From Clostridiales bacterium (GTDB taxonomy: Bacteria > Bacillota > Clostridia > Christensenellales > CAG-314): 64,000 nt of DNA. The stretch is from positions 91,729-155,728 of the forward strand of contig JAFLVM010000002.1 in assembly GCA_022508305.1 (NCBI GenBank), written 5' to 3'. The notes beneath the pieces were generated by a model. It saw only the letters and a program-made list of their open reading frames with translations. It ran no database searches and was not told where the DNA came from. The position numbers were made by a program, and so were the translations under genes. Of this stretch, positions 41,318 through 50,464 are shown one piece after another; within the stretch, counting starts at the first letter, position 1, and every line of letters starts with the position of its first letter.

Positions 41318-41385
41318 ACAGTTGAAAATTGTATCTTCGTACAATTTAAGCTAAAATGCACAAAACTTTCCAATTGAAAAGAACA

Positions 41386-41416
41386 AAATTCGGTTGCCTC
41401 CGCAACCGAATTTTTG
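41386..41416 (+). terminator. Terminator
   Basis: AAATTCGGTTGC, CTCC loop, GCAACCGAATTT, then TTT. Confidence 0.9.
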
Positions 41417-41617
41417 TTTGTGAGACTTATTATTCAACGCTTACATTTATACTTGATGTTTGTTCATGACGCAAGATTTCTTCAATATGTGTTTCTTTAT
41501 TTTATTTATCACTTATTTAATAAAAAACAAACAATTGCTTAACAAAAACGCAATGAAACAGGTATATATAATAATCTTTACAATAGTAGTGTAAAGCCCT
41601 AAAACGCTAATTTTTTA

Positions 41618-41639
41618 CTAAGATAACATTCAATTATTG
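41618..41639 (+). promoter_or_regulatory. Shared 22-nt 5' element, copy 1 (upstream of the 762-aa gene)
   Basis: CTAAGATAACATTCAATTATTG ends 12 nt before ATG 41652 and abuts the SD (GAAGG). It matches copy 2 on the opposite strand at 21 of 22 positions. Confidence 0.7.
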
Positions 41640-41651
41640 AAGGTATAACCG

Positions 41652-43940
41652 ATGTACACACTGGACGAAACGATTTCCAAAACCATTAAAGAACGGCTTG
41701 ACGACGGACAACGAGTAATCAGTCTTAAGCTACCCTACGGAGAAGTTTATACAAACTATTTAAATATTCCTGATTACAAGCTATATTACTGGGACAATAC
41801 CAAAGACAAACTTTGTTTTAGAAACGACAAAACTAAGATTATTTTCAAGTTTTTGTTTTGGTTGGCAGAAGTTGTCTTGTTTGCTTTGCAGTGTATATTA
41901 CAAGTTCCGGTAGATCCGATGAGCGTACTTGCGCTTACGGGCGAGTTTGCCGAACTAAGCATACAGTTTTTTGACACAACGTCTAATATCAACAATGACG
42001 TTTTTAAATCACTTTCCAAACATATAAAAATCAAAAAACGTCCCTGTAAAGAATACAAAAAAATTAAAAAGGTGTTTTATATCTTCCTAGACAAAAATAC
42101 GTCTAAGGACTTATACAATACCGCTCTTTTGCTTGCAGATTTAGTTAACAATGGGTACGTGGATAATTTGGCGGTAGTATTTTTGTCTACCGTGGACTTA
42201 AAAAATCCCCATCAAGAGCTGCTGAAACTTGACGGACTATCCGAAGAAGAAAACGAATTTGCCTGTAATTTCGGGCGCGATATTCTTGTTTGCATTCGTG
42301 ATAAGCGATATGCGGACGCCGCGATTCAAATAGGCAAATTTATATCAAATCAAGGACTTGAAAACGCAGACATATTTAATTTTGCTATGCAATGCTTATC
42401 CTTTTGTTACGAAAGGTTGAACGAAGCAGATTTTCGACGTCTGTTTGAAGAGAATGAAATAAATATTCATGAGGAACTGAACTTTGGTAAAAACAATAAT
42501 TTTATCGAAAATTTGCAAATCAACAATTCATTTTTGAGATTTTGTTACGGTTGTTTACAACATTACTACCGAAAGAGCAGCGGCGTTCATTCGAATAGTC
42601 TTGACGACAATTTTTTGCAAATAGTAAAAGCTATTCAAAGTAACTTGGTTACAAACAACGACTACTATTCCGCGGCGCAACTGTTTGCAAAGTTCGGCGG
42701 CGTTGAGGAGACCGTAGACGCGTATATTTTGGCATACGTTCACTCTCAATACGTCAATTATTCTGTCAGTGATGAAATATTGCTTGCCATTGAACAATAC
42801 AGTCTTGCATCGTCGAAAGCAAAACTGTTTTTGCAATTGCACGAATTGAACAAGGAGGAAAATCCCGACCCCATATCCGTAAAATCTTTCATAGCGCAGG
42901 TGGAAAATATTAAATTTTCCGACCCCATATTGAAAATATGCTTTTATTACTATCTTGTAAACCCAATTTACAAGAGTGATTGCTGTGATGTAAAGTTTAT
43001 GCGCAATTATATAAGCGCTTACACCTCGTTGAATAGTCAAAACAAAGCGTTTAGGTGTCTGTTTGGCGCGCAGTTTTTGTTACTTTACACAACTATCGAA
43101 GACGTCGAATTGCGCAACAAATTTGGCAAATCAGTAGACACAATTTTTCATTATGTTCGTGAAAATATCTATTTAATAAAAGACAAGGTTGTATATTTCA
43201 AGATTTACCGTTCGTTAAACGGTATATACGTTGACAGATTTCACGAAAATCTCCGTCAGATGTTATCAATAAAAAAGAACGTAGCGGTATATGAAAAAGA
43301 AAATATACTTTACAACATAAATTTGGGCGCAACGTATGCCTTTTGCGGAGACTACAAGTCGGCGCTAACCACGTACAAAAACTTGAAGAAAAAACAGCTA
43401 AACCTGCTGCCACTGTATGTAAAAGCATCGCATCAAAATAACTTCGCGGTATTGCAATATCTGGACAACCCAACCGTAGATAATGCAAAGATTCTGTACA
43501 AACAAACAGATGATTTCTTACGCAAATTCTACGATGAAAAAACCGTTACGGAAGAGACGCGACACTTAGCAATCAACAGGGCATTGTTTGCTATTTTGGG
43601 GCAGTTGCCGAGCAAATTGATTCAACTTGCAATCAACGAGGCGAATGCTCTTTGCGACGACAACTATTTCAAATTTTATATGCAGCAGGCGCAATGGCTT
43701 TACAACGTATTGCGCCACGAACAAATATCCGAGGAAATAATAGAAAGCGTATTTTTCTCAAACAAGATATCTTTCTTCGAGCAAAAAATTGCCGTTATGA
43801 ACTCTGCAACCGATATCAAACAGTTATCTGTCGGTAAGTTAAACGCTATACTTAAAGAAGAATTATCAGACTTTGATGACGACTACGATTATTTCAAAAA
43901 TGCTGCTGTATTTAGTTTAGTGGAGCGTTGGTACGAGTAA
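41652..43940 (+). CDS. Large helical-repeat protein of unknown function (possible degenerate KAP-type P-loop with TM insertion)
   Basis: 762 aa, AT-rich codons. RVISLKLPYGEVYTNYL sits where a Walker A would be (G and K lost). A TM-like segment IIFKFLFWLAEVVLFALQCILQV follows, then KVFYIFLDKNTS (Walker-B-like), then about 550 aa of helical, TPR-like sequence. There is no intact NTPase motif. Confidence 0.7.
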   Translation: MYTLDETISKTIKERLDDGQRVISLKLPYGEVYTNYLNIPDYKLYYWDNTKDKLCFRNDKTKIIFKFLFWLAEVVLFALQCILQVPVDPMSVLALTGEFAELSIQFFDTTSNINNDVFKSLSKHIKIKKRPCKEYKKIKKVFYIFLDKNTSKDLYNTALLLADLVNNGYVDNLAVVFLSTVDLKNPHQELLKLDGLSEEENEFACNFGRDILVCIRDKRYADAAIQIGKFISNQGLENADIFNFAMQCLSFCYERLNEADFRRLFEENEINIHEELNFGKNNNFIENLQINNSFLRFCYGCLQHYYRKSSGVHSNSLDDNFLQIVKAIQSNLVTNNDYYSAAQLFAKFGGVEETVDAYILAYVHSQYVNYSVSDEILLAIEQYSLASSKAKLFLQLHELNKEENPDPISVKSFIAQVENIKFSDPILKICFYYYLVNPIYKSDCCDVKFMRNYISAYTSLNSQNKAFRCLFGAQFLLLYTTIEDVELRNKFGKSVDTIFHYVRENIYLIKDKVVYFKIYRSLNGIYVDRFHENLRQMLSIKKNVAVYEKENILYNINLGATYAFCGDYKSALTTYKNLKKKQLNLLPLYVKASHQNNFAVLQYLDNPTVDNAKILYKQTDDFLRKFYDEKTVTEETRHLAINRALFAILGQLPSKLIQLAINEANALCDDNYFKFYMQQAQWLYNVLRHEQISEEIIESVFFSNKISFFEQKIAVMNSATDIKQLSVGKLNAILKEELSDFDDDYDYFKNAAVFSLVERWYE

Positions 43941-44972
43941 CTTTTGAAACAGCAGAATTTGATAAATTGTTCTGTCATCATTGCTTACCTGTTTTAACGC
44001 AGTGTTGGCAGAACTGCATCTGGAAATAGTTGGGTTTGGCGTTATGTCAAAAAGGTACGTTTTGTCGCCACTTACCATGAAATCAAAACGCGCAATGGAT
44101 TCAAAACCAAGTATAGAATAAGCGCGCAAGGCTTGTTCCATAACCATTTTACTCGTTTTTCCTGTGTATATTTCAAAATCGTATTGGTCGTATGCCACAG
44201 TTGTGTAGTCTAAGTATTCACCCTGTTTTACTATTTTGACAGGCGTGGAGACGTATAGTTGATCGTACCAAGGCAGTACGGTACATTCCACCTCATCGCC
44301 TTGAATAAACTCTTCCAAAAAGACAGACTTGTATTCCTCTAATGATTTAGATATGATTTGCTTTGCATCTTCGTCATCTACGTCTTTCGTTATCTTTTCT
44401 ATTCCTATACTTGCCGATTCGCTGTTTGGTTTGAGCAGTACGGCATCCACTGTACGTCTAAAACCGTTTGCAAGATTCATGTCGTTCTCCGGCATAAAGA
44501 GCCTATGGGGTAAAGAAACTTCGTTTTCTAAAAGTTGATGCATGAGTTTTTTGTCTCCGCCTAAAAATGAAGAACGCGAATTTGAAGAGATGTTGACAAA
44601 TCCGTAGTATTCACAAACAAGCGGAACAAAACAGCGCCGTCCGACACCGAACAAGTTTTGCGCCATAGAGTAGACGTATACGTTATCGTACCTGTTTTTT
44701 AGCTTTGGCGCTTGAGCGATAAATTGGTCTTCCCCGTCAATCAAAATTACTTTCAGTCCGCGTACCGAATGTAACGCATCGCTGATAAGTGCTATTTCAT
44801 CATCATAAACGCATTCCGAACGGTGAACTTCATCTATCTCATTGTTATCTAAGGAATTGTAAACAAAAACAACGCAACTGTTGTCAAAATCTTTACCTTT
44901 TAACTTTATGCTTTGTTTTACTTCATTAAATTCTTGCTTTAATTGCTCGCTTGTAATTACACCTTTTATCAT
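43917..44972 (-). CDS. ATP-grasp enzyme, D-Ala-D-Ala-ligase-like
   Basis: 351 aa. LGGDKKLMHQLL, VLLKPNSESASIGI, EEFIQGDEVECTVLP and ARFDFMVSGDKTYLFDITPNPTIS parallel the Ddl/ATP-grasp motifs. SD GAGG lies 7 nt before the ATG. The 3' end overlaps the convergent 762-aa gene by 24 nt. Confidence 0.75.
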   Translation of the reverse strand: MIKGVITSEQLKQEFNEVKQSIKLKGKDFDNSCVVFVYNSLDNNEIDEVHRSECVYDDEIALISDALHSVRGLKVILIDGEDQFIAQAPKLKNRYDNVYVYSMAQNLFGVGRRCFVPLVCEYYGFVNISSNSRSSFLGGDKKLMHQLLENEVSLPHRLFMPENDMNLANGFRRTVDAVLLKPNSESASIGIEKITKDVDDEDAKQIISKSLEEYKSVFLEEFIQGDEVECTVLPWYDQLYVSTPVKIVKQGEYLDYTTVAYDQYDFEIYTGKTSKMVMEQALRAYSILGFESIARFDFMVSGDKTYLFDITPNPTISRCSSANTALKQVSNDDRTIYQILLFQKLLVPTLH

Positions 44973-44993
44973 TAGAATACCTCAATTTGACGA

Positions 44994-45015
44994 CAATAAT
45001 TGAATGTTATTTTAG
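44994..45015 (-). promoter_or_regulatory. Shared 22-nt 5' element, copy 2 (upstream of the ATP-grasp gene)
   Basis: The minus strand reads CTAAAATAACATTCAATTATTG, 21 nt before ATG 44972. A TTGACA (minus strand, 45055-45060) lies upstream. Confidence 0.7.
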
Positions 45016-45042
45016 TGAGATGAGGAGACAATTAAGCGTGAA

Positions 45043-45080
45043 AATAACTGCCATTGTCAAATAGCAATGGCAGTTTGTGT
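45043..45080 (-). terminator. Terminator after the PadR-hydrolase operon
   Basis: AACTGCCATTG (45051-61), 8-nt loop, CAATGGCAGTT (45070-80). The minus-strand downstream sequence is ATTTTC. Confidence 0.7.
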
Positions 45081-46860: not shown

Positions 46861-47673
46861 ATGGATATTGAGCAGGGAAGTATCATTTTTGGTTTGAATT
46901 CAAAAAAATATCCGGAACAAGCGTGTTTTGGAGTGATTATAACTGCTAGTTGTGATATTGCCAATCAAAAAGTGGGAGAAGTGTATTATTTGACGGCAGT
47001 AAATGTTAAGGAATGGCTTTGTACTAAAAGGGGACACGCTTTGGTAATAAAAAATAAGCGAAAAGCACTATATAATAAACTTCAGCAGCAAGTCCGAAGT
47101 CAGCGGTTGAACGAATCACTACTTGTTAAACTGTCACTTGAAGAAGTAAAAACAGTAATTAACGAAACTGTCACTCATGATAAAACAAGAGAAGACATTC
47201 TAAACAATATTCACAATTATTTAGAACTTATAAACGACAGTACGATTGAAAAAAGAAAAGGGGATGCACAGCTGTATTCGCACGATTGTGGTGAACTGCT
47301 TAATCAAATTAGCAAGGGTGATTATCATCGATTTATATATTTGCCAGAAATTGCATATATGGAAAGTTCTAAGAAAGATAACGGAATAATTGTAGATTTT
47401 CAAGAAATAAATTGTCTGCCAATGGAAGAGATACGACTTTTAGTCAATGGTGAAATTGACTATATGATACAAGAAGACAATTTAGATAATTTGCAAAAGT
47501 TGAAAGAAGGATTTTGGTTGAAAAATAAAGATGATTTTGCTTTTTTGTATGGTAAAATTTCGTCTCCTTGGCGAGAACACCTAATGCAACATTTTTCTTT
47601 TTATTTCACTCGTATAGGGTTAGATGGTGCAGAAACAAAAGATTTTCAAAAAATAAGTGAAGGAATAAAATGA
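46861..47673 (+). CDS. Hypothetical protein, partner of the SF1 ATPase (candidate defence-system component A)
   Basis: 270 aa. Strong SD GGGAGGAA. N-terminal GSIIFGLNSKKYPEQACFGVIITASCDIANQKVGEVYYLTAV and a helical C-terminal half. No signal peptide, no TM segment, and no motif I can assign. Confidence 0.75.
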   Translation: MDIEQGSIIFGLNSKKYPEQACFGVIITASCDIANQKVGEVYYLTAVNVKEWLCTKRGHALVIKNKRKALYNKLQQQVRSQRLNESLLVKLSLEEVKTVINETVTHDKTREDILNNIHNYLELINDSTIEKRKGDAQLYSHDCGELLNQISKGDYHRFIYLPEIAYMESSKKDNGIIVDFQEINCLPMEEIRLLVNGEIDYMIQEDNLDNLQKLKEGFWLKNKDDFAFLYGKISSPWREHLMQHFSFYFTRIGLDGAETKDFQKISEGIK

Positions 47674-47681
47674 GGTAAATT

Positions 47682-50000
47682 ATGAGTAACAAGTTTTTAC
47701 TATTTGATAAAGCGGCTATAGACATATTAGTTAGCACACGCACATTTCAAAGTATTGAGTATACGAACGGCATGAGACTTGTGGAACATGCATGTGGTAA
47801 ACATTCTTCAGAAATTTTAGGAGATATAAATATTCGATACTGTTATGATGGAATAATTTTTAGTGGGAAGCGTGGTAATGTGTATTCTGAAGAACAAGAA
47901 AGCAGTAGTTTAAAAAACCATAAGCTTTTCTGCATAGATTTAACAACCTGTGATATATTGTCAGAAAAAGATAGACCCAGTGATTTGTTTACTGTATTGC
48001 AAAAGTCATTTAGAGTATGTCTAAAAATTTGGAATCGTCTGCCATTTGGATTTTCTGAACGTATTCACGAGTCCAAATCTATTGTTTTTCCATTTGCAAT
48101 CACAGATAAGAGAAGGATTGTAATTGAGCGTTCTAATAATATTTCAAGATTGGAGAAAAGGGGAGTTATCAGCCCTCTTCTTGCATATAAATATAATGCC
48201 GAAGAGCCTCGTCCTGGTGTTGAAATTGCAGATACAACTGTACTTAGAAAGGCAGGCGAGGCCTATGTGGATGTAATTTATGAACTTCAAAATGAATTGA
48301 AAGCAAACGAAAATATAGCTTTTTTACCTATAGATAGTAACCTATTCAATCAAGTTACAGCGACTAAGGCTGTGGGGAGAGATGATTTTATGTTTTGGGA
48401 TTTTAAAAGACAGTATGATAACTTGACAGAAACCCAAAAGTATATTGTTGATGTTGAATCTATAGATTCACCTTTGCGTATAGATGGTCCTGCAGGAACT
48501 GGCAAAACCATATCCATGATATTGAGAGCCTATAAAATATTGAAGCAATATAGAGAAAATGGAAAGCCAATTAAAATCGCATTTTTTTCCCATAGCGAAT
48601 CGACTTGTGAGCGTAATCAGTATGTGTTTGGGTTGTATGAAGAAAGCAGTTATTTCTTGAATGAAAAGTCACCGCAAAATATTATTTTTACAACACTATT
48701 AAAGTATTGTTGTGACTACGCAGATATACAGAGGGATAGGTTAATCGAAAAAGATGCGGATGATGCTAAAACATATCAATTGTACCTAGTTGAAGAAGTA
48801 TTGCAGAAAGCTAAAGATATGCATAAAATTCGCACCCTAAGACCATTGATGTCTAAGGGCTTGCAAGAAATATTCGACGATGAAAAAACCCCTACGGCGA
48901 TACAATGTGCCTTGTTACAGCATGAATTTAGTATACAAATAAAAGGGCGAACAGATTGCACATTTGATTCCTATTGTGATATAGAATCAATAACTAACGG
49001 ATTGCCCTGCAAAAATCAAAAGGACAAAGAATGCATATTCTTGTTATTTAATGATTATCAAGATTACTTAAAAGGGATGGGCAATTTCGATGTGGATGAT
49101 GTAGTTATTGAAGCAATGTCACGTCTAAATGCTCCAATATGGAGACGGGAGAGAATAGACAGCGGCTTTGATTATTTGTTCGTGGATGAAATGCATCTGT
49201 TTAATATTAATGAGCAAAGTATTTTTCACTATCTAACAAAAAATTTAGATCCCAAACAGGTGCCAATATGTTTTGCGCTTGATTATAGTCAAGCCATTGG
49301 CGATAGAGGAAATGTGAATCTCGATTATATTGAGAAAAACTTCGGTGATAATGCGGAAAGGAAAAATTATCATACAGTATTCCGTAATTCACCGCAAATA
49401 GCGGATTTCTGCGCTGCAATTGCTTCATCGGGAACATTGATGTTTCAAGAATCATTTTCTAACCCTTATAATGGAATCCAAAACAATTTTGTGGAGGCCG
49501 AAGAGCGTAATTGTGAGATTCCCAAACTCTGTATGTATCCTAATGACGACAAAATGATGGAGGCTCTGGGATATCACATTCAAGAGATAAGCCGTAAGTT
49601 ACAGTGCCAATTGGGTGATATTGCCGTAATCTCGTTTAATAATATGGCTAGTGAGGAAGGTGTCAATGAATTAAGCGCAAAAACAGGAAAAGCGTTTTCC
49701 TTGCTCAAAAACAGAAATAATAACATGAAATCAATTGTCTTGGCATCGCCCTATGAAATAAACGGACTAGAGTTTAAAGCGGTGATACTGTTGGGCGTAG
49801 ATGAAGGAAGAGTCCCGCAAACTGCGGGTGTTAGTGATATTTCACAGCACTTCATTAAATATTCGGCTTATAACTTTTTATATCTTACATCATCAAGGGC
49901 TAAATATCAACTCGTACTACTTGGTAGTAAACTTAACGGATGTTCTTCATGTTTAGAGCATGCAATAAAAACGGAAAGGATAAAATATGAAGAGTTCTAG
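47682..50000 (+). CDS. UvrD-like superfamily-1 helicase/ATPase with an N-terminal domain of about 260 aa of unknown function (candidate defence-system component B)
   Basis: 772 aa. LTETQKYIV...PLRIDGPAGTGKT (Q motif and Walker A), YLFVDEMHLFN (Walker B), TVFRNSPQIADF (motif IV-like), INGLEFKAVILLGVDEGRVP and YLTSSRAKYQLVLL (motifs V/VI-like). SD GAGG (47672-75) overlaps the upstream stop codon. Confidence 0.85.
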   Translation: MSNKFLLFDKAAIDILVSTRTFQSIEYTNGMRLVEHACGKHSSEILGDINIRYCYDGIIFSGKRGNVYSEEQESSSLKNHKLFCIDLTTCDILSEKDRPSDLFTVLQKSFRVCLKIWNRLPFGFSERIHESKSIVFPFAITDKRRIVIERSNNISRLEKRGVISPLLAYKYNAEEPRPGVEIADTTVLRKAGEAYVDVIYELQNELKANENIAFLPIDSNLFNQVTATKAVGRDDFMFWDFKRQYDNLTETQKYIVDVESIDSPLRIDGPAGTGKTISMILRAYKILKQYRENGKPIKIAFFSHSESTCERNQYVFGLYEESSYFLNEKSPQNIIFTTLLKYCCDYADIQRDRLIEKDADDAKTYQLYLVEEVLQKAKDMHKIRTLRPLMSKGLQEIFDDEKTPTAIQCALLQHEFSIQIKGRTDCTFDSYCDIESITNGLPCKNQKDKECIFLLFNDYQDYLKGMGNFDVDDVVIEAMSRLNAPIWRRERIDSGFDYLFVDEMHLFNINEQSIFHYLTKNLDPKQVPICFALDYSQAIGDRGNVNLDYIEKNFGDNAERKNYHTVFRNSPQIADFCAAIASSGTLMFQESFSNPYNGIQNNFVEAEERNCEIPKLCMYPNDDKMMEALGYHIQEISRKLQCQLGDIAVISFNNMASEEGVNELSAKTGKAFSLLKNRNNNMKSIVLASPYEINGLEFKAVILLGVDEGRVPQTAGVSDISQHFIKYSAYNFLYLTSSRAKYQLVLLGSKLNGCSSCLEHAIKTERIKYEEF

Positions 50001-50040: not shown

Positions 50041-50086
50041 AACAAAACAAATACGCACGCCCTTGAAGGGTGTGCGTATTTGTTTG
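50041..50086. terminator. Bidirectional terminator shared by the helicase gene and ssrA
   Basis: CAAATACGCACGCCC (50048-62), TTGAA loop, GGGTGTGCGTATTTG (50068-82). Confidence 0.85.
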
Positions 50087-50089
50087 TAA

Positions 50090-50464
50090 TGGTGGAGCTG
50101 ACGGGACTTGCACCCGTGTACCAACGTAAGACTACTTGACTTTCTCCGCGTTCAGTTTGCTTTTGACGTCACAACGATAAGATAGCAAACCAACTTTTCG
50201 TTGCCTGCAACGAATGAGTTTTCGACAAGTGGCGGTTCGTTGCAACCGTCACCGTCTATTTGCGTGATATTACGCAGGACGTTTCACGACGCAAAAATGT
50301 GAAAGCCTACGCGCTGGCGTAAATTAGGCAGCGTATGCCAATCTCATGGATTGGCTGTTTGTGCTATTGTTAGCGTTTAATTTAGTTTTGCCTTGATGCG
50401 CAGTGGGCGCTGCGACGCGCTTATCAAATCTCCTTTAACGCCGGGCGAATCTAAAAACAGCCCC
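50090..50464 (-). ncRNA. ssrA: tmRNA (transfer-messenger RNA)
   Basis: On the minus strand, 5' GGGGCUGUUUUUAGAUUCGCC... pairs with ...CAGCUCCACCA 3' to form a 7-bp acceptor stem with the G3-U pair and an encoded CCA. The T-arm is ACGGG-UGCAAGU-CCCGU. The internal tag frame GGC AAA ACU ... GCU GCC UAA (50392..50324) encodes GKTKLNANNSTNSQSMRLAYAA. Length is 375 nt. Confidence 0.85.

Follow-up and report, generated by a model that had tools for sequence, protein, structure and literature searches.

Short dif-like inverted repeats as very probable inversion sites around a convergent gene pair for a Ddl-fold ligase and a tetratricopeptide-repeat-like protein in Clostridia

We analyzed a stretch of 64,000 nucleotides (nt) from a Clostridiales bacterium (assembly GCA_022508305.1, contig JAFLVM010000002.1, positions 91,729 to 155,728), which is referred to below as the window. 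It contains two convergent genes, one encoding an ATP-grasp ligase of 351 amino acids (aa) and the other a protein of 762 aa, and the same short element is located as an inverted repeat directly upstream of each. An earlier note, made from the sequence alone, had drawn attention to this arrangement. Direct reading and a pattern search confirmed that CTAAGATAACATTCAATTATTG (41618-41639, plus strand) and CTAAAATAACATTCAATTATTG (minus strand of 44994-45015) are identical at 21 of 22 positions. A repeat finder extended the match by one base, to 22 identities over 23 nt (41617-41639 and 44994-45016). The spacings to the start codons at 41652 and 44972, the two open reading frames (ORFs) and the overlap of their 3' ends were likewise as the note had described them. 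In the metagenome-assembled genome (MAG) to which the window belongs, the 762-aa protein is MCH5152084.1 (locus tag J1F65_05460). We refer to the two repeats as arms, and to the segment that they enclose as the cassette. The features are summarized in Table 1.

The note had judged that chance was a poor explanation for the match between the arms, and this was borne out. In 100 dinucleotide-preserving shuffles of the window, no match to the 22-mer was found at up to three mismatches, and a pattern search detected no third copy of the 22-mer in the 64-kb window. The degenerate core ATAACN5ATTAT occurs twice in the window, where 0.10 sites are expected, and the two sites are the two arms. The element is an imperfect palindrome and is located just 5' of both ribosome-binding sites. 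A 17-bp core, ATAACATTCAATTATTG, is common to both arms. The note had also proposed to look for a target-site duplication; none was found outside the arms, where CGCTAATTTTTT stands opposite GAGATGAGGAGA.

Table 1. Coordinates of the cassette, its arms and flanks in the window, and of a second cassette on other contigs (SD, Shine-Dalgarno sequence)
Feature	Coordinates	Strand	Remarks
Left outer flank, 200-nt AT-rich intergenic region	41415..41616	+	Follows the terminator (hairpin 41385-41414) of a BspA-LRR gene
Left arm, 23 nt	41617..41639	+	dif-like core GATAAC-ATTCA-ATTATT at 41622-41638
Left arm, part identical to the right arm, 17 bp	41623-41639	+	Contains the inferred crossover point
Large gene, 762 aa	41652..43940	+	Own SD (AAGGT) inside the cassette; arm-to-ATG distance 12 nt
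Overlap of the convergent coding 3' ends, 24 nt	43917..43940	.	Codes for ERWYE, the conserved C terminus of the large protein
ATP-grasp ligase gene, 351 aa	43917..44972	-	Own SD (GAGGT) inside the cassette; arm-to-ATG distance 21 nt
Right arm, 23 nt	44994..45016	-	Core AATAAC-ATTCA-ATTATT; 17-bp identical part 44994-45010
Right outer flank, terminator-like hairpin of an alpha/beta-hydrolase gene	45046..45075	-	Ends 28-30 nt before the right arm
Transfer-messenger RNA (tmRNA) gene	50090-50464	-	Rfam RF00023, 98.5 bits; not reported by ARAGORN
Second cassette	L038 2747-7936; L039 1-141		Core AATAACTATTGATTATT common to L038 and L039

The same neighborhood is present in a 51-kb contig of the European Nucleotide Archive (L011, sample ERZ27293309), which was retrieved by an exact-protein look-up. 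The alignment between this contig and the window falls into three blocks: L011 1-6691 corresponds to window 51684-44994 in reverse, L011 6669-10068 to window 41617-45016 in the forward direction, and L011 10046-18992 to window 41639-32693, again in reverse. The flanks are the same and the 3.4-kb segment between them is in the opposite orientation; no bases were gained or lost, and the breakpoints fall inside the repeats. The left flanks are 100% identical across 8947 nt, and the first mismatch in the right flanks is more than 6 kb away. Over the central 3400 nt the two sequences differ only at 41622 (G/A) and 45011 (T/C). These two sites represent the single position that distinguishes the arms, and in each assembly the base at this position keeps its outer flank. 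Since the arm-specific bases remained with the flanks, the exchange fell within the 17-bp identical core. The two sequences, from what is essentially the same strain, differ by a conservative reciprocal exchange inside these 17 bp. We consider it very probable that the two arms are the recombination sites of a 3.4-kb invertible segment.

Other assemblies break at the arms. A Logan contig (L012, from SRR13619862) corresponds exactly to window 41623-45010; at either end, it breaks off at the first base that is arm-specific. Assemblers usually work with words longer than the 17-nt repeat, and these break points therefore suggest that both junction types were present in SRR13619862. Contigs L017, L019, L031, and L033, of 3.4-3.5 kb, consist of nothing but the cassette, and an arm is located at both of their ends or close to them. 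In L031 and L033 the arms are located exactly at both contig ends, and one end of L016 lies in an arm.

The layout of the cassette recurs in its relatives. In every sufficiently visible locus, a 350-370-aa ligase is encoded convergently with a 750-810-aa protein, the coding regions overlap by 24-33 nt, and inverted repeats of 17-61 nt are located directly 5' of both start codons (L001, L002-5, L006-9, L013, L014, L016, L017, L019, L021/23, L026, L031-34, and L036). About 16 distinct loci, from Clostridia MAGs (such as L013, from GTDB) to Paenibacillus (L014, Paenibacillus sp. FSL H8-0034), share the gene pair and the inverted repeats. An overlap of either 24 or 33 nt was kept in L001, L002, L006, L013, and L014. 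Over their full length, the large proteins of the distant cassettes are homologous to the 762-aa protein (hhalign probability 100%, E 2e-72), and they have the C-terminal motif ERW[YF]E in common with it; the two genes thus are an evolutionarily linked pair. The note's suggestion that they form one module held for all subfamilies, in which the genes co-occur in convergent and overlapping arrangement.

Across loci, the repeats have a single feature in common, the core RATAAY-N5-RTTATY. Examples are AATAAC-TCTTT-ATTATT, AATAAC-TATGA-ATTATT, GATAAT-ACTTA-ATTATC, and GATAAC-TTAAA-ATTATC. The five central bases are the same in both arms within a locus and differ between loci. Judged from the sequences, the core has the signature of a tyrosine-recombinase site, with two inverted half-sites predicted to bind the recombinase and an asymmetric spacer in which crossover would occur.

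The family of the large protein is tiny. A word-indexed search returned five proteins, and a profile search of 1.84 billion representatives returned 17 clusters; the ligase family is larger, with 63 matches. A scan of the GTDB representative genomes with the 762-aa family yielded one further locus only (L013). No relatives of the 762-aa protein were found among the PLSDB plasmids and INPHARED phages, and none of the ligase in IMG/VR.

Some members depart from the common layout or lie in distinct surroundings. In L006 (9350-13747) and also in L007-L009, the invertible segment measures 4.4 kb, is bounded by perfect 33-nt arms, and contains a third gene 5' of the ligase gene; the encoded protein of about 331 aa has an N-terminal hydrophobic stretch and no family match. 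The gene caller reported a 402-aa ORF that crosses the right arm of L006; this ORF is probably too long. L006 alone lies in a defence island, with AbiH, RloB/AAA_21, and HamA plus a helicase. The cassette of Allocoprobacillus halotolerans (L015 9974-13363, CP101620.1), with arms GATAAT-ATCAG-ATTATC, adjoins a cell-surface polysaccharide cluster (NusG-like, Polysacc_synt_2, DegT, Bac_transf, and glycosyltransferases). Its large partner is split into ORFs of 540 and 159 aa and is a probable pseudogene, and no recombinase gene is located within 10 kb of the cassette. The cassette in L014 is surrounded by housekeeping genes. In L024-L029, the ligase gene has its upstream core site and lacks its last ~80 nt and the convergent partner. 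Pieces that are located 3' of the ligase gene in L024 (7951-8566) lie 5' of the ligase gene on the same strand in L022 (2296-2558). From their sequences, L022 and L024-L029 look like a subfamily of decayed or rearranged cassettes.

In eight lineages of relatives, a gene for a tyrosine recombinase (291-317 aa, PF02899 plus PF00589) directly adjoins the cassette (L002/3, L006-9, L013, L014, L021, L026, L032, and L036). Where both flanks of a cassette are visible, the recombinase gene is usually adjacent, and it can be on either side. No other gene accompanies the cassette repeatedly. The cassette-adjacent recombinases score best against the XerC and XerD models, at 212-246 bits, which is under the cut-offs of about 330 bits. 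The family is large (2326 proteins at E < 1e-40) and abundant in gut Clostridia. No serine invertase gene adjoins the cassette; a large serine recombinase is encoded in L006 only, 5 kb off.

A recombinase of this type also adjoins a second cassette with other cargo. In L038, recombinase P0086, which is 85% identical to that of L002, is encoded next to a 5.1-kb segment with AATAACTATTGATTATTGG arms. The cargo is a GT2 glycosyltransferase (537 aa), whose gene is convergent and overlapping with that of an Mrr_cat/AAA_22 protein (1177 aa). The recombinase-side flank joins the 5' end of the 1177-aa gene in L038 and the 5' end of the glycosyltransferase gene in L039, which is from another assembly. 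L038 and L039 are a second pair of opposite orientations. A further contig, L040, stops 6 nt past a core site that adjoins a recombinase gene. With different genes in the second cassette, the combination of site and recombinase type is not confined to the cargo found in the window.

The 351-aa protein has a match to PF07478 (5e-17), in agreement with the note's assignment to the ATP-grasp ligases. Its structural model is of high confidence (predicted local distance difference test, pLDDT, 90.3), and all of the top 50 Foldseek matches of this model in the PDB are Ddl or Van ligases, with template modelling (TM) scores of 0.64-0.83 at 14-19% identity. The ATP-grasp motifs K-P..S.G, E-E, and R-x-D are kept. 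In place of the E-x-N metal motif of Ddl, the cassette ligase has D-I-[TG]-[PA]-N, and the N-terminal GG.S.E.EVS motif is replaced. NCBIfam scores are about 69 bits (69.3 for TIGR01205) against cut-offs of at least 245 bits (245.65 for TIGR01205). The ligase has the full three-domain Ddl fold with a sequence outside the curated Ddl family. In view of the low identity, the scores under the cut-offs, and the altered metal and N-terminal motifs, its substrate is probably different from that of Ddl. We treat the protein as a Ddl-fold carboxylate-amine ligase; the modelled fold suggests the ATP-dependent joining of an amino acid, possibly into a dipeptide of the D-Ala-D-X type.

The note had described the 762-aa protein as helical, and the model (pLDDT 80.8, predicted TM score 0.66) agrees: an N-terminal alpha/beta region is followed by a helical solenoid that resembles tetratricopeptide repeats (TPR) and makes up most of the protein. 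A hydrophobic stretch at residues 58-112 is poorly predicted. Neither this protein nor six distant partner proteins had any match in Pfam, NCBIfam, or PADLOC, and a search of PDB sequences with the family profile returned no match. In Foldseek searches of the PDB and BFVD, the model matched only generic TPR proteins (Rap/NprR, LGN, and APC) at E values of at least 6e-3, from which no function is derivable. Neither cassette protein matches the defence-system models of PADLOC-DB 2.0, and no export signal or lipobox was recognized in either of them.

In the window as in all relatives, the arms are placed just before the start codons with only an SD in between. Distances of 12 and 21 nt between arm and ATG leave no space for an internal promoter, so that transcription of both genes has to start outside the cassette and pass through the arms. 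An inversion consequently swaps the upstream regions of the two genes. Since no terminator was found between the convergent genes, transcription of one runs antisense through the other, and this read-through would reinforce mutual exclusion. As oriented in the window, the TPR gene has the AT-rich left flank in front of it, and the ligase gene the hydrolase terminator. The note had placed a promoter-like region before each element. This was not upheld: neither flank has a good sigma-70 match, and the right flank contains the terminator-like hairpin, which has a folding free energy (dG) of -16.9 kcal/mol (z -4.0; none of 200 shuffles folds as well). With this hairpin 28-30 nt from the right arm, there is little room for a promoter on the right side. 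Transcription probably enters the cassette from the left flank, although a consensus promoter was not detected there.

The flanks of several relatives are also unequal. In L006, L021, L026, and L015, a single flank contains a strong sigma-70-like promoter. TTGAAA-17-TGgTAAAAT is found on the recombinase-side flank of L002 and L038, directed into the cassette. In the window, L013, and L014, a terminator hairpin borders one of the two arms. In L014 (9957-9999), the recombinase-side flank together with the core forms a strong hairpin (dG -23.8, z -5.5), in which CCUCC pairs with the GGAGG (SD) of the ligase gene and which is followed by U7; the other arm has no CCUCC partner. Going by this predicted fold, the gene that faces the hairpin flank in L014 would be both terminated and translationally masked.

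From these features we propose the following mechanism. A Xer-like tyrosine recombinase would pair the arms, exchange strands within the shared 17 bp, and flip the segment. The arms would serve as dif-like sites, with the inverted half-sites RATAA and TTATY around a short asymmetric center. If only one flank transcribes effectively (in the window the AT-rich left flank, the right being a terminator), two alternative states would result. In the orientation of the window, the TPR protein would be on and the read-through transcript would be antisense to the ligase gene; in the orientation of L011, the ligase would be on. The evidence on whether the two genes are expressed in a mutually exclusive manner is mixed, and we hold this part of the proposal to be evenly balanced.

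Several observations weigh against the proposal. For the window, the two orientations come from two different assemblies and not from reads of one clonal culture. No recombinase gene was found in the 64-kb window in tblastn searches with two cassette-adjacent recombinases. The homologues P0101, P0117 (MCH5152186.1), and P0140 stand alone, with no core site nearby, so that not every member of the recombinase family is tied to a cassette. In sigma-70 consensus scans, the flanks in the window score no better than shuffled sequences. Both flanks of L002 contain the same extended -10 promoter-like sequence, contrary to what would be expected of a strict toggle with one promoter. Finally, near-identical cassettes meet unrelated outer flanks exactly at the core in several pairs (L035 vs L036, L021 vs L022/L024-30, L002 vs L004, and, on the right side, the window vs L010).

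A recombinase that acts in trans on the arms in the window is plausible. The candidate, MCH5152186.1, is encoded on a different contig of the MAG and is 64% identical to the L002 recombinase; its accession number is ~100 removed from that of the 762-aa protein, which places both in the same MAG submission. The protein is also present in sample ERZ27293309, the source of L011. RecV of Clostridioides difficile provides a precedent for a trans-acting recombinase (PMC7446863). After another stand-alone homologue (L042 9001-16798; 73% identity to the L002 recombinase) come four unknown genes in a row (330-470 aa) and then a second, different integrase (PF14659 plus PF00589). RATAAY-N5-RTTATY does not occur in this region, which may be another kind of variable locus.

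The pairs with differing flanks indicate that the sites do more than a two-state inversion, or are hot spots for other rearrangements. L035 and L036 are 98.5% identical from the core onward. In L010, which is 94% identical to the window, the right 5-kb block of the window, from the arm to the 3' end of the tmRNA gene, is replaced by a block with a helix-turn-helix (HTH) and a Big_2 protein, and homology resumes at the core (45011) and at 50085. The cassette thus abuts a variable island at ssrA. In the window this block encodes an alpha/beta-hydrolase, PadR, a 270-aa protein, and a UvrD-like protein. The sites may also serve the exchange of cassettes and flanks, or larger inversions together with further sites.

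Two observations were made in passing on these flanks. On the plus strand of window 46861-50000, the gene for the 270-aa protein, which has no family match, is directly followed by that for the UvrD-like helicase of 772 aa; the latter matches PADLOC GajB models (best E 7e-11) and, weakly, HelD/PcrA. This may be a Gabija-like or other defence pair within the variable island. The cassette of L004 is identical to that of L002, and at the core it passes into GC-rich sequence (L004 1-421), followed by a GC-rich hairpin. By eye, the minus strand of this sequence reads like an internal fragment of a SpoVAD-like gene. The junction reflects either insertion into a genome of high GC content or a chimera in a contig of low coverage.

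The abrupt change of flanks at the core is what would be expected if the arms were the ends of a mobile cassette, which would let the 3.4-kb unit move or swap between sites and genomes, with inversion as a side reaction. The position of the cassette next to a variable island at the 3' end of the tmRNA gene fits this explanation, as do the patchy spread from Paenibacillus to Clostridia and the tiny size of the family (17 representative clusters). However, each locus contains a single copy with neither a transposase nor a target-site duplication, the plasmid, phage, and viral-contig collections contain no homologue, and recombination between inverted sites leads to inversion instead of excision; neither an empty site nor a circular form was observed. 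We therefore regard mobility as the primary role of the arms as unlikely. The earlier note had considered terminal inverted repeats delimiting a 3.4-kb cassette, and this survives in part: the repeats do delimit a discrete unit, but the unit is a site-specific invertible segment and not a transposon. A transposon, insertion sequence, or miniature inverted-repeat transposable element was rejected in the absence of a transposase domain, a target-site duplication, and an additional copy in the window.

The note had put forward a common operator or a control site in the 5' untranslated region (5'-UTR), through which a transcription factor (e.g., PadR) or an RNA-binding factor would co-regulate both genes. 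A palindromic element right before both ribosome-binding sites could act in this way, a small hairpin is possible in the transcript, and in L014 the hairpin that includes the core sequesters the SD. The sites may have a regulatory function on top of recombination. On the other hand, the inversion breakpoints fall inside the element, and its 5-nt center is the same between arms and free to vary between loci, as is needed for recombination but not for an operator. The recurrent companion of the cassette is the tyrosine recombinase; PadR is not kept, being absent beside the cassette in L010 and in every other locus, and a PadR operator was rejected for this reason. A primary role as operator or 5'-UTR element is unsupported, the sites being crossover points of the inversion, and we consider this explanation improbable.

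Unprogrammed origin of the L011 orientation, through RecA-dependent recombination at a chance inverted repeat or through an assembly artefact, would agree with the fact that only two assemblies document the two orientations of this strain, but is scarcely credible, given that 17-23 nt of identity is very short for homologous recombination, that the same sites, gene pair, and adjacent recombinase are found in many independent loci and with different assemblers, that a second cassette type occurs in both orientations, that five independent contigs end in arms, and that the arm-specific bases fit a conservative exchange inside the core.

Site-specific inversion by a Xer-like recombinase, the explanation that we prefer, can be compared to several known systems. 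The G segment of phage Mu and the C segment of P1 measure ~3 kb, are bounded by short inverted repeats, and contain two convergent gene sets that are read alternately from one outside promoter. Their recombinases, Gin and Cin, belong to the serine invertases and depend on an enhancer and on Fis; the cargo consists of alternative tail-fibre genes with a constant 5' part. The cassette has the same geometry, but is a chromosomal element with a tyrosine recombinase and dif-like sites. The dif site of E. coli is GCGCATAA-TGTATA-TTATGTTAAAT (the left arm is also written GGTGCGCATAA). The ATAA-(spacer)-TTAT of the cassette core matches the inner arms of Xer sites; however, the spacer of the cassette sites is 7 bp instead of 6 bp, the outer arms are not dif-like, and the sites form an inverted pair, whereas dif is a single site at the terminus.

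The mycoplasma vpma, vsp, and vsa loci are similar in other respects. In these, a Xer-type recombinase is encoded beside the locus, the sites are located in 5' leaders, and inversion allows a unique promoter to reach silent genes (PMC2268961). The cassettes resemble these systems (with the tyrosine recombinases Xer1, Mbr, and HvsR) in their leader sites, in genes without promoters of their own, and, in relatives of the window, in the adjacent recombinase. The cargo of the mycoplasma loci is a paralogous family of surface lipoproteins that share a 5' end, whereas the cassette contains two unrelated, convergent, and overlapping genes. The hosts are also different (Clostridia and Paenibacillus), the genome of the window has no adjacent recombinase, and in the cassettes the single promoter is an inferred one. 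In Ureaplasma parvum, inversion at short inverted repeats alternates two different neighboring genes, UU172 and UU171 (PMC3047005), and Xer-type recombinases are the suspected agents at the UU172 element and the mba locus (PMC3047005; PMC3599477). In contrast to the cassette, in which both sites lie in leaders, one of the Ureaplasma repeats is intragenic, so that chimeric genes arise, and the products are surface antigens.

Literature searches for ATP-grasp proteins with invertible elements, phase variation, or defence systems returned nothing that describes the cassette, and it is not mentioned in the systematic surveys of programmed inversions that were searchable (PMC9881135 among them). 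The cassette apparently belongs to an undescribed family of flip cassettes in Firmicutes. It differs from the known systems in its cargo of two unrelated, apparently cytoplasmic proteins, in the strictly convergent and overlapping layout, in the dif-like cores, and in its hosts among Clostridia and Paenibacillus. More tentatively, and with the odds against it, the cassette may represent a broader class of gene-swap invertons in Firmicutes that are driven by Xer-type recombinases and have not been described. Members of such a class would have dif-like sites in leaders, convergent, overlapping and unrelated genes, one outside promoter, and antisense silencing; their cargo would vary (a Ddl-fold ligase and a TPR protein in the window, a GT2 glycosyltransferase and an Mrr/AAA protein in the second cassette type), and they would serve bet-hedging between envelope or anti-phage states, e.g., by turning an alternative ligase of the D-Ala-D-X type on and off in part of a population.

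Invertible switches are a main route of phase variation, but systematic surveys have concentrated on intragenic inversions and on short promoters that invert. A segment of kilobase size in which entire, unrelated genes change orientation easily escapes notice, and the cassette is a clean natural example of such a segment. In practical terms, these cassettes break metagenome assemblies at defined points, and many stand-alone 3.4-kb contigs were found. Because the fold of the ligase suggests the joining of amino acids, possibly into a D-Ala-D-X-type dipeptide, our best guess for the outcome of the switch is a phase-variable change of cell-envelope chemistry. If the switch controls the Ddl-like ligase, subpopulations with altered cell-wall precursors would be possible and, if this is true, the altered precursors would bear on glycopeptide tolerance, on the adsorption of phages, and on host recognition.

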